From Candidatus Zambryskiibacteriota bacterium (GTDB taxonomy: Bacteria; Patescibacteriota; Minisyncoccia; Phycocordibacterales; DATDWN01), in contig PPGI01000008.1 of NCBI GenBank assembly GCA_003173855.1, positions 10,119-74,118 of the forward strand: a stretch of 64,000 nucleotides of DNA, written 5' to 3'. A program made the position numbers and the translations under genes. Under the pieces are notes generated by a model. The model saw nothing but the letters and a program-made list of their open reading frames with translations. It made no database searches and had not been told where the DNA came from. Within the stretch, counting starts at the first letter, position 1. Each line of letters starts with the position of its first letter. Below, one piece after another: positions 26,951 through 31,881 of the stretch.

Positions 26951-28006
26951 ATGAAAAAAATTATCTCAACCCTGGTAGTTTCTCTTACGCTTTTAGCTCC
27001 GGAAATGATCCAAGCGGATATTCTTTCTACTGTTCCTCTGGCTCCTGCAGCAACTACTACTCCAGCTTCAAGCCCATTATCATGTTTTAATTTTACTAGG
27101 ACTTTGAAGTCGGGAAGTACATTATATGATGTTCGTGCCTTGCAATATGCAATGCAGAAAGAGGGTTTCAGCATTCCAGTTTCAGAATACGGCAGATTCG
27201 GAGACGCAACTCTAGCTGCGGTAAATGCATTTCAGCAAAAATATGCAAGTGATATTTTAACAAATGGACAGTCTCCAACGGGAATGGTTGGTCTGAATAC
27301 CAGAAGGAAACTAAATTCATTATATGGTTGCGATGTTGTTGTTCCAGTTGCTCCAATGACGGTTCCTACCAATGTTTCATTACAAATTAAAAATGTGACG
27401 ATCGATAGCAATGGAGTTACTGCAACATTCTGCAATCAAAGTCCAACTGCCATTCCGGTATTTCCTGCTCGTGTAAGATTAAACGGAATCATTCGTGATT
27501 TCGATATCACAGCTGCTAGGGGGCAGGGAGCATGTGATACGGTTACATTTCCTTATGCAACGTGGGGTCTAACTTTTGATCCATCTTCAACTTACGGGGT
27601 GGTTACTGCACTTGACCCAAATGGAATGTATAAAACAAGTTCTATTGTATACCCATTAAGTACAACAACAACATTGGCAATTCCTGCTATTGACGGTGCT
27701 CATCTGTCAGTTCGAGGTGTCTTTATTAAATCGAGTGGTTTGCAAGGAACTTTTTGTAACTTAGGAACTACAGACCTAGCTTCTTATCCAGTTAGGGTAG
27801 TCCTTAATGGAGTTACAAAAGATTTTGAGGTTCCTGGCGCATATATGCATGGCAAATGTTCAACCGTTACTTGGACATATGATAATTGGGGAGTTTCATC
27901 TACTACAGGTACGTATGTTTCAGCTACTGTAAATATTGATCCTAATAATATTATTAAGGAAACAAACGAGTACGATAACTCAGCTTCTATTTCTGGAACG
28001 ATATAA
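26951..28006 (+). CDS. Secreted protein with a peptidoglycan-binding (PG_binding_1-like) domain and two CARDB-like repeats
   Basis: Signal peptide; PG-binding-like helix bundle (LYDVRALQYAMQKEGF...GDATLAAVNAFQQ); two ~110-aa repeats with conserved Cys pairs. Confidence 0.6.
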   Translation: MKKIISTLVVSLTLLAPEMIQADILSTVPLAPAATTTPASSPLSCFNFTRTLKSGSTLYDVRALQYAMQKEGFSIPVSEYGRFGDATLAAVNAFQQKYASDILTNGQSPTGMVGLNTRRKLNSLYGCDVVVPVAPMTVPTNVSLQIKNVTIDSNGVTATFCNQSPTAIPVFPARVRLNGIIRDFDITAARGQGACDTVTFPYATWGLTFDPSSTYGVVTALDPNGMYKTSSIVYPLSTTTTLAIPAIDGAHLSVRGVFIKSSGLQGTFCNLGTTDLASYPVRVVLNGVTKDFEVPGAYMHGKCSTVTWTYDNWGVSSTTGTYVSATVNIDPNNIIKETNEYDNSASISGTI

Positions 28007-28031
28007 TTAAGCTTAAGCTTATGTTATTAAA

Positions 28032-28058
28032 AACAAAAACCGCCTTCGCGGTTTTTGT
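28032..28058. terminator. Bidirectional terminator (aaaaccgccttcgcggttttt); terminates ssrA on the minus strand
   Basis: Perfect hairpin flanked by A and T runs. Confidence 0.7.
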
Positions 28059-28068
28059 TTTGTATTTG

Positions 28069-28451
28069 TGGAGATGGTGGTATCGAAACCACGTCCATAT
28101 ATAGAATTGAAACGAATCTACAGTGCTTAGGATATTTAATTGTTTAAAACACAAAGCTTAGAACAGCCAAAATACTTTGTATTCGAGTTCCTATTTTTCG
28201 GAAGTTTCCGGAACAAGGAACTTCTATAACCTCAATTTATATCAATCAACTTCTCGTATGAGATATGAGAGAAGCGACCGTCCCTTAGGCTAAAGCGTAA
28301 GAGAAAGTATAGGCTCCGTAAGGAGAAACTACACCCTTAGACAAGTTTTTTACACTTAATCTTTCCAAACCGTTTTAGGAGAATTTGGTGCTCCGCATTG
28401 CACGTATCAATGTCGAATATATGTCAAAACCTGTCATCCCCGCTCTTTGTA
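28069..28451 (-). ncRNA. ssrA: tmRNA (ssrA), ~383 nt
   Basis: 5' GGGGAUG pairs with 3' CAUCUCC, including the G3:U70 pair that marks alanine charging. tRNA-like T-arm (GUGG-UUUCGAUA-CCAC); discriminator A; CCA not encoded. Internal tag reading frame GCC UAU ACU UUC UCU UAC GCU UUA GCC UAA (AYTFSYALA*) at 28285..28314. Adjacent to smpB. Confidence 0.75.
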
Positions 28452-28688
28452 CGCGACTACAGAAAGTGCCACATATAAATTATTTCTTTTATTTTTGTGT
28501 TTACTGCACTAACAATTTCGTGTCCAAAGAGCGGGGCAGGCCCCTACAATAAACCTCGTTGAACTATGACTTTTTCAGCATCGCGGAGTGCATGAAGCAC
28601 GAGCGCGAGGAAAATTTTTAGCAAAAAATTATTCCGGTGATGAAAAAGTTATGGTGAAAAAGAGATTTACTCTAGGCCGAATCAGGTT

Positions 28689-29132
28689 TTATTTGTCAGA
28701 GAACTCTCGACTGATCTCACGGTCAGTGTCACGCTTTTTGATTGTTTGTCGTTTATCAAATTTTTTCTTTCCGCGAACTGTTGCGAGACCAAGTTTCAGC
28801 TTGCGGCCTTTATTGTACACTGAAATTGGGATGATTGTCAAGCCCTTTGTACCTTCGTTTTTTGACAATTTAGTTAACTCTTCCTTTGTAAGTAATAATC
28901 TTCTGTTTCTATATGGATCGTAGTCAGCTGGAGTGTTATTTACTTGGTATGGTGGCACAAACATGCCTGTAACGTAAGCTTCATTTCCGCGGATAGTTAT
29001 GTAAGCTCCCTCAAGTGACCCTTTGCCAGATTTTAGAGATTTCACTTCAAAACCAAAAAGCTCAATACCAGCAGTATATTTATCTAGGATTTCGTAATTA
29101 AATTGCGTCTTGCGGTTTGTGACTAATGACAT
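28689..29132 (-). CDS. smpB: SsrA-binding protein SmpB
   Basis: 147 aa; SmpB-like (FNYEILDKYTAGIELFGFEVKS...). Confidence 0.92.
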   Translation of the reverse strand: MSLVTNRKTQFNYEILDKYTAGIELFGFEVKSLKSGKGSLEGAYITIRGNEAYVTGMFVPPYQVNNTPADYDPYRNRRLLLTKEELTKLSKNEGTKGLTIIPISVYNKGRKLKLGLATVRGKKKFDKRQTIKKRDTDREISREFSDK

Positions 29133-29220: not shown

Positions 29221-29433
29221 ATGGACCGAAAGTCGATCTCGATCATGAAAGCGTGCGAGTTGGTGGGCGTTTCTCGGCGGACGATTTACAACTGGCTCTC
29301 GAGTGGCAAGATCGAGTACGTTCGGACTGCTGGGGGGTCGGTACGAATCTTCGTCGACTCGTTGTGGCGCGATCCGCATAAGGTCGATCGGCCAGCAGTT
29401 CAGACTGTCTTGCAGGCTGAAGGGCGGAGCTAG
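29221..29433 (+). CDS. Excisionase-family helix-turn-helix DNA-binding protein, GC-rich (~58% GC)
   Basis: ELVGVSRRTIYNWLSSGKIEY is an Xis/MerR-type HTH. GGGAGG SD. Local GC far above the genome background. Confidence 0.65.
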   Translation: MDRKSISIMKACELVGVSRRTIYNWLSSGKIEYVRTAGGSVRIFVDSLWRDPHKVDRPAVQTVLQAEGRS

Positions 29434-31758: not shown

Positions 31759-31807
31759 GCAGTGTTCACGCAAAAGGCCGGCAACCCGCCGGCCTTTCCT
31801 ATACATG

Positions 31808-31881
31808 TCCGCCTGCTTGGACTCGAACCAAGGACCCCAGAGGTATAAGCTCTGTGCTCTAACCAACTGAGCTACAGGCGG
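31808..31881 (-). tRNA. tRNA with anticodon UAU (predicted Ile, AUA-reading)
   Basis: Canonical cloverleaf: acceptor CCGCCUG/CAGGCGG; D-arm GCUC-AGUUGGUUA-GAGC; anticodon stem CAGAG/CUCUG with loop CUUAUAC; T-arm CUUGG-UUCGAGU-CCAAG; discriminator A; CCA not encoded. Confidence 0.75.

Follow-up and report, generated by a model that had tools for sequence, protein, structure and literature searches.

Upstream of ssrA, the gene for transfer-messenger RNA (tmRNA), a Candidatus Zambryskiibacteriota genome carries an inverted repeat that raises two questions: does the repeat belong to the tmRNA precursor, and what might it do there? The locus lies in a 64,000-nucleotide (nt) stretch of GenBank assembly GCA_003173855.1 (contig PPGI01000008.1, positions 10,119 to 74,118), which is called the window here and is numbered from its first nucleotide. 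ssrA (28066-28441) and the gene directly upstream of it, smpB (28689-29132), are both encoded on the minus strand, and in the window they are separated by a spacer of 247 nt. To judge from the sequence, the inverted repeat in this spacer is real, non-random and evolutionarily maintained. We propose that it is the core of a structure found only in the pre-tmRNA, a closing or "anti-acceptor lock" helix, and assign this reading a probability of about 0.55. The exact role of the lock may lie in processing, in folding or in coupling to smpB.

An inverted repeat at the 5' end of ssrA

The arms of the repeat (28438-28456 and 28518-28536) are 19 nt each, are complementary at 17 of 19 positions and have 61 nt between them. 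The 19-mer arm finds no other match in the 64 kilobases of the window at three or fewer mismatches, where 0.01 would be expected by chance, confirming that the upstream repeat described in the first-pass annotation exists. That annotation took the repeated segment to be the first 18 nt of the mature tmRNA, which is not the case: the 3' arm, UCGCGUACAAAGAGC followed by GGGG on the minus strand, consists of leader positions -15 to -1 plus tmRNA positions +1 to +4, and only G1-G4 are therefore mature, the other 15 nt being 5' leader. The 5' or upstream arm, CCCCGCUCUUUGGACACGA, also on the minus strand, forms 17 base pairs (bp) with the 3' arm across an AT-rich apical loop of 61 nt (28457-28517).

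The predicted helix does not end with the repeat. In the fold of a 141-nt segment (-47.5 kcal/mol, z = -5.5) it runs on past a bulged AUGA (tmRNA +5 to +8) into CAGGUUUU, and tmRNA positions +9 to +17 find their partner in GGGGCCUG (28537-28544), immediately 5' of the upstream arm. When the whole spacer is folded (-90.6 kcal/mol, z = -6.1), the same second locked segment, CAGGUUUUG (28425-28433), pairs instead with UAAAACCUG at 28691-28683, a basal partner that contains the smpB stop codon UAA, and thereby closes the spacer. The 247-nt spacer is thus predicted to form a single closed domain made up of the basal 9-bp helix, a branched hairpin (28678-28539) and the 17-bp hairpin. The branched hairpin domain, found by inverted-repeat search as well as by folding, is homologous to its counterpart in one relative, L086 (L numbers denote the loci of relatives), and is built from the helices 28678-28662 x 28557-28539 and 28655-28638 x 28580-28563 together with apical stems. 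In all, the predicted precursor duplex of the window amounts to 17 bp plus 9 bp, with a junction and the 4-nt bulge between them; in several relatives it reaches 20-30 bp.

Folded alone, the mature tmRNA adopts its native acceptor stem and T arm. For a 740-nt RNA that extends from the predicted transcription start to the tmRNA 3' end, both the minimum-free-energy and the centroid structures are predicted to retain the lock and to leave the acceptor stem unformed, and enforcing the acceptor stem carries a predicted cost of 6.8 kcal/mol. Within this precursor the predicted pairing probability of G1-G4 with the arm is 1.0 and that of +9 to +16 with the spacer is about 0.75. If the acceptor stem is enforced, a leader hairpin flush with position -1 persists.

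L086, whose SmpB is 75% identical to that of the window, has a homologous spacer and the same hairpin. Where the window reads CCCCGCUCUUUGGAC / GUACAAAGAGCGGGG, L086 reads CCCCGCCCUUUGGAC / GUACAAAGGGCGGGG, a compensatory change from U:A to C:G. The L086 loop is about 14 nt long, and the 61-nt loop of the window thus holds a 55-nt insertion; the L086 spacer is predicted to fold into the same three-way architecture (z = -7.1). A loop of about 14 nt is too short for a promoter, so that the L086 arm would lie within any ssrA transcript. Among the relatives' loci the window-specific hairpin is common to L086 only, while L081-L085, L087 and L088 have the general architecture without a hairpin of the window type. 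When metagenomes were scanned for the window-type arm GGCCTGCCCCGCNCTTTGG, 57 loci matched and a tmRNA 5' end lay downstream in none of them, indicating that all were chance matches.

Whether the upstream arm is transcribed in the window depends on where ssrA transcription starts. A promoter-like site, TTGACA-18 nt-TACAAT (28812-28841, minus strand), matches the consensus at 11 of 12 positions and overlies the smpB codons L-T-I-I-P-I-S-V-Y-N; it lies about 270 nt upstream of the 5' arm and predicts a start near 28805. Of 67 loci, 66 keep the -35 hexamer TTGACA at synonymous sites and 65 the -10 hexamer TAYAAT (TATAAT in 58, TACAAT in 7), and the six codons between the hexamers are free to vary at synonymous positions. 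In the rest of smpB, by comparison, TTG makes up 20% of leucine codons and ACA 27% of threonine codons. These observations provide strong comparative evidence for a predicted ssrA promoter embedded in the smpB reading frame. The smpB gene of E. coli has no TTGACA/-10 promoter site. Several relatives carry another TTGACA close to the smpB stop, but no -10 hexamer accompanies it; it was rejected as a promoter and ascribed to C-terminal codons.

With its predicted promoter inside smpB, ssrA would be carried on primary and smpB read-through transcripts that both include the whole spacer and with it the upstream arm. A minus-strand scan found no promoter-like site in the loop or elsewhere in the spacer. 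The first-pass annotation had allowed that the arm might lie upstream of the transcription start and so be a feature of the DNA only; the conserved promoter within smpB, and the lack of one in the loop, point the other way.

Pairing across relatives

To place the window among its relatives, 80 loci from species-representative genomes were gathered via SmpB, and further, closer loci were added by exact-protein look-ups. Helices were compared with mononucleotide shuffles and with genomic-window controls. RNAduplex pairing of the upstream region with positions -16 to +25 yields helices of 25-36 bp in many loci, although their leader sequences are unrelated, and in 21 of 69 Parcubacteria loci this pairing beats all of about 90 genomic control windows. 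Conservation of the upstream repeat, a check proposed in the first-pass annotation, therefore holds at the level of architecture, which is common to many Parcubacteria loci. The lock is distributed over two major clades of the SmpB tree. E. coli, used as a negative control, has no lock (z = +0.65).

Tested separately from the rest of the helix, the leader half gives a clearly significant result. The mature 25-nt segment is G/U-rich and pairs readily with any sequence, and a free 30-nt window test of the mature part gave a weak signal. In an anchored test, the core that pairs with the leader was kept and the adjacent 30 nt were swapped for random genomic 30-mers. The window gained -19.2 kcal/mol from its own sequence, against -7.6 ± 3.5 kcal/mol for the replacements (z = -3.3, 1 of 316 controls as good), and among the relatives z was below -2 in 14 of 37 loci (Wilcoxon p = 1e-4).

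The position of the upstream arm is also informative. It lies at or just past the smpB stop and tracks the variant found at the tmRNA 5' end: AAACCTG occurs with CAGGTTT, TTGTCT..CC..TTCCC with GGGGAT..GGCCTAGACAA, and CTATCATTCGCCTAAAG with TTTTAGGGGGATGA. A swap test of this covariation gave p = 0.004 overall, a value driven by one variant group. The stop-proximal element AAACCUG was found as well in L001, L005-L008, L014, L016, L017 and L081-L087. Whole-spacer folds of 34 of 54 loci pair at least 9 mature bases with the 25 nt that follow the stop, compared with 65 of 324 control windows (Fisher 6e-10), and this stop-proximal closing pairing is seen in spacers as short as 39 nt and as long as 354 nt. 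At its apex the spacer is evolutionarily fluid; L081 and L082/L083, which have identical SmpB, differ by a 30-nt indel at the apex of the spacer hairpin, and their closing helices are unchanged.

Substitutions within the helices bear the mark of RNA. Across 31 helices there are 112 G.U pairs and 13 single A/C mismatches, whereas simulated neutral transition decay of perfect palindromes, run through the same pipeline, gives a ratio of 2:1 (binomial p = 3e-9). The energy of the sense strand is below that of the antisense strand in 59 of 69 loci, a bias that composition may explain in part. Loop lengths range from 0 to 126 nt across loci. Most plausibly the structure is a helix formed by the sense-strand RNA.

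Several facts weigh against the lock. In the simple duplex test, roughly two in three of the 69 loci stay within the genomic null, and the mature 25 nt alone pair upstream no better than random genomic 224-nt windows do (mean z about 0). End-to-end pairing is seen in 20-32% of control windows too, and the relatives are non-independent samples. The case for mature bases taking part is carried by the anchored and positional tests, whose results reach significance but are of moderate size. Relatives with spacers of 2-25 nt have no lock, indicating that it is not required for tmRNA maturation and would be accessory to the spacer. The 6.8 kcal/mol that separates the locked from the enforced state is within the nearest-neighbour error for an RNA of 740 nt, and the calculation ignores tmRNA pseudoknots. 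Lastly, the helix in vivo is inferred, as are the precursor and the start of transcription. The suggestion in the first-pass annotation that a precursor helix sequesters the acceptor 5' strand is sustained insofar as the helix exceeds chance, is conserved with covariation and is predicted to out-compete the acceptor stem.

What the helix may do

Our proposal for the locus runs as follows. ssrA would be transcribed from the sigma-70-type promoter in the smpB coding sequence as well as by read-through from smpB, all primary transcripts carrying the 247-nt spacer. The spacer would fold as one closed stem-loop domain, whose basal helices would join it to the 5' leader, to acceptor bases G1-G4 and to tmRNA +9 to +17, forming the anti-acceptor lock. 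In the locked state the acceptor stem would be unable to form, and the precursor would therefore be no substrate for ribonuclease (RNase) P or for alanyl-tRNA synthetase. The lock might be opened in one of several ways: a double-strand-specific nuclease such as RNase III could cut the long duplex, the 3' acceptor strand, in concert with SmpB or RNase P, could displace the lock, or a ribosome could resolve it as translation terminates at the stop codon inside the basal helix. RNase P cleavage at +1 would leave the upstream smpB RNA ending in a 3' hairpin made of the leader half of the helix.

The candidate roles that follow (placeholder and packaging, RNase III-type stalk, stabiliser of the smpB mRNA 3' end, ribosome-opened lock) are not mutually exclusive. 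Our preferred reading is that of a closing and placeholder helix, which would pack the variable spacer into a nuclease-resistant form and keep the G-rich 5' strand engaged while the 3' half of the tmRNA is still to be made.

Helices of this general kind are familiar from other stable RNAs. In the RNase III stalks of ribosomal RNA (rRNA) precursors and in the precursor of the B. subtilis small cytoplasmic RNA (scRNA), the helix is made by the 5' flank with the 3' flank, and the mature ends are found outside it or at its base. The window resembles these stalks in that its long helix would exist only in the precursor, flanks a stable RNA and has a variable apex. It differs in that the upstream segment is predicted to pair with the leader and about 13 bases of the mature 5' end, leaving the 3' trailer uninvolved; the trailer forms a separate terminator hairpin, and the pairing of 5' with 3' flank that defines an RNase III stalk is thus absent. 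The 5' leader of 16S rRNA pairs transiently with the mature 5' end and acts as a folding placeholder. The likeness here is that a leader pairs with a mature 5' region whose true partner is made much later, and in doing so excludes the native helix. The RNA is a different one, however, and the window pairing is far longer (17 + 9 bp) and is the predicted ground state of the precursor.

Among tmRNAs, the precursors of permuted two-piece molecules share with the window the order of partner strand, loop and acceptor 5' strand, the loop being removed by processing (PMC3985003). The window gene, unlike these, is colinear and complete and has its own 3' acceptor strand, and its upstream arm is not a T-arm/acceptor piece and would pair with the leader and the D-loop-like region, to which the native 3' piece does not pair. 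B. subtilis makes long and short pre-tmRNAs whose structure influences maturation, a precedent for precursor-specific structure controlling the yield of mature tmRNA (PMC5876405); that case depends on a ligand, flavin mononucleotide (FMN), belongs to another lineage and has no leader-acceptor helix described (PMC5876405). In Carsonella the smpB coding sequence extends into ssrA (PMC4131195), and, as in relatives of the window with spacers of 2-13 nt, tmRNA processing sets the 3' end of the smpB mRNA; in the window itself the two genes are set apart by the 247-nt structured spacer. The smpB stop lies 2-13 nt before tmRNA +1 in L055, L074, L035, L065, L037, L032, L069, L064 and L057, where an RNase P cut would leave the smpB mRNA nearly without a 3' untranslated region, close to being a trans-translation substrate itself. 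Neither a leader-acceptor helix nor an ssrA promoter within smpB was found described in the literature searched, which is weak evidence because few subscription journals were in scope. The window case is, on this comparison, a putative precursor processing or folding helix on an ordinary one-piece tmRNA, and processing and folding helices as such are already known.

Of the alternatives to the lock, the one that survives best centres on smpB and is, in our view, unlikely but deserving of attention. It holds that the helix mainly yields a stable 3'-terminal hairpin after RNase P cleavage, which would shield the smpB mRNA from 3' exonucleases, and that the paired mature bases are incidental. No terminator was found between smpB and ssrA, so that the 3' end of the smpB mRNA must arise by processing. 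The stretch of helix confined to the leader is statistically the strongest (significant in 21 of 69 loci, in nearly all of which its 3' arm reaches -1), the hairpin flush with -1 survives an enforced acceptor stem, and in L045, L030, L001 and L015 the mature part contributes little. Yet the extension into the mature RNA exceeds the anchored null in the window and in 14 of 37 loci, the stop-proximal arm covaries with the tmRNA 5' variants, and pairing to +9 to +22 closes the entire spacer. An internal promoter would, moreover, make many leaders without a translatable smpB. Protection of smpB is in any case compatible with the lock and does not exclude it.

A more elaborate version of the lock itself is quite unlikely. 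It envisages a "pro-tmRNA" switch, in which the basal helix of an inert, nuclease-protected precursor would be opened by the ribosome terminating on smpB, or by free SmpB that binds the D-loop-like segment at +9 to +17; the acceptor stem could then form and RNase P could cleave, and the amount of tmRNA would thereby be matched to that of SmpB. Nothing similar to such a switch was met in the literature searched. If true, it would provide a structural coupling of the stoichiometry of the two components of trans-translation.

Translation-coupled unlocking, considered by itself, we hold to be distinctly improbable. Here a ribosome at the smpB stop would melt the basal helix, whose 5' strand begins at that codon or overlaps it, and tie maturation of the co-transcribed tmRNA to SmpB synthesis. 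The stop codon UAA of the window does form part of the predicted 9-bp basal helix, and in most loci that have a spacer (39-354 nt) the 5'-most partner of the mature tmRNA falls between -11 and +17 nt from the stop. The stop-adjacent placement may, however, merely reflect a spacer that is nothing but hairpin. End-to-end pairing is found in 20-32% of control windows as well, and transcripts from the internal promoter, which have no in-frame start codon, could not be unlocked in this way.

It is very unlikely that the repeat is a DNA-level or neutral feature, whether a quasi-palindromic insertion "corrected" by template switching or a protein-binding or cruciform site, with no RNA function needed. 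The high variability of spacer length and sequence, its absence in some lineages, the apical indels between near-identical loci (L081 versus L082/L083, the window versus L086) and the existence of long, near-perfect inner hairpins would all fit such an origin. Against it stand the excess of G.U pairs over the neutral ratio and the lower energies of the sense strand; in addition, loops of 0-126 nt are hard to fit with the operator of a dimeric protein, and one arm is constrained tmRNA sequence, older than any insertion. Finally, transcriptional control, also raised in the first-pass annotation, by an attenuator or terminator before ssrA or by an operator around a promoter in the loop, is highly improbable in spite of the UUUUG that follows the window helix (CAGG-UUUUGAC) and the hairpin with TTTTAG right before +1 in L002, L004 and L052: the minus-strand scan found no terminator-like or promoter-like site in the spacer (28442-28688), the U-run belongs to the conserved mature tmRNA and is missing from variants that read GGCCTAGAC, a terminator at +1 would abolish ssrA expression because no promoter can follow it, and the L086 loop is about 14 nt.

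The tmRNA gene in its lineage

The gene to which the lock would be attached is an ordinary one. ARAGORN calls a tmRNA on the minus strand at 28068-28441, and Rfam RF00023 matches 28066-28441 on the same strand with 106.7 bits (threshold 47, E 1e-40) over model positions 1-374, the full length of the model. Its tRNA-Ala-like acceptor stem, GGGGAUG / CAUCUCC, includes a G3.U pair; the T arm, from the sequence and the Rfam alignment, is GGUUUCGAUACC. The 3' end (28066-28075) reads ...CAUCUCC-A-CAA, and since CCA is absent from the genome at this point it must be added post-transcriptionally. The upstream gene encodes a protein of 147 amino acids that matches Pfam SmpB (E 2e-46); its closest database relatives are 70-76% identical, and those that are named are Patescibacteria, Parcubacteria or Zambryskibacteria. 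ARAGORN, Rfam and Pfam agree with the first-pass annotation that ssrA adjoins smpB, and covariance score, acceptor stem and T arm, tag frame and smpB partner all identify a one-piece tmRNA. A permuted two-piece tmRNA was rejected because the gene matches the one-piece model colinearly and from end to end. An attachment site for an integrative element at ssrA was likewise rejected, the repeat being inverted, located at the 5' end and conserved in structure across species. A small open reading frame within the smpB-ssrA spacer was considered and rejected as well.

The tag reading frame (28285-28353, minus strand) has 22 codons, VKNLSKGVVSPYGAYTFSYALA, as given by the ARAGORN coding part 89-157 and by homology to the tags of relatives. 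Its resume codon is GUA at 28353-28351 and its stop is UAA at 28287-28285; the context UAAGU|GUA aligns with UAAGU|GCA or GUA in relatives. The tag had been read before as AYTFSYALA, with the right frame and stop and a start 13 codons too late, and running ARAGORN, the check suggested at that time, upheld the frame and stop and replaced the nine-residue start. The ending ALA had also been thought unusual. In a set of 50 tags, from the window and 49 relatives, it is the commonest ending (11 of 50), LAA occurs in none, and A-x-A fits 38. The motif SP[YF] is found in 48 of the 50, and tag length ranges from 17 to 28. The window tag is homologous along its entire length to those of relatives, for example VKNLSKKASVSPYFGSNDLVFSYALA and VKNLSKRAVVSPFFGAKDFAFSYALA, which together with the frequency of ALA indicates that it is ordinary for the lineage. 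Its sole mildly unusual feature is a valine resume codon in place of the usual GCN (alanine). GUA is also called by ARAGORN in L002, L005, L017 and L085 and is placed by homology in L001, L003, L008 and L014; the aligned position elsewhere holds GCA.

ARAGORN returned no tmRNA in 31 of the 80 relatives' loci, and when Rfam was applied to 20 of these a tmRNA was recovered in 19. The missed loci include L001, L006-L008, L011, L014, L018 and L020, and L043 has no tmRNA by Rfam either. Judged by the homologous frame, the ARAGORN resume codon is misplaced downstream in L003 and probably also in L042, L061 and L073.

The surroundings of the two genes hold other features. Downstream of ssrA, the inverted-repeat and terminator scans found a perfect 14-bp hairpin with T/A runs on either side (28030-28061), the only terminator-like site of the scan, which is likely to be a bidirectional terminator serving ssrA and a convergent gene. 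The latter (26951-28006, plus strand) lies between ssrA and infC and encodes a secreted-looking protein of 351 amino acids with PG_binding_1 and CARDB domains; in L081-L083 infC follows ssrA directly, without it. Between smpB and ftsH, an open reading frame of 70 amino acids (29221-29433, plus strand) is HTH_17/MerR-like, of the excisionase type, and lies in an islet of 56% GC in a region of 32-42% GC; it may be the remnant of a mobile element beside the ssrA locus. A tRNA-Ile with the anticodon UAU, uncommon among bacteria, is encoded at 31807-31881 (minus strand), and it is a lineage trait in conserved synteny, as at least 10 relatives' loci have it some 2.5-3 kb upstream of smpB.

For annotation, two points follow from the lineage as a whole: its tags are long, at times start with valine and typically end in A-x-A, and ARAGORN misses at least 19 tmRNAs in the 80 relatives' loci that Rfam recovers. 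The predicted ssrA promoter in smpB codons would be a clean example of a dual-coding constraint. Although few small RNAs have been studied as thoroughly as tmRNA, its biogenesis is usually summarised as RNase P for the 5' end and exonucleases for the 3' end. If a helix conserved in the precursor conceals the acceptor strand, maturation would gain a further step, regulated or assisted, in the ultra-small Patescibacteria, a large group whose RNA biology has hardly been approached by experiment.

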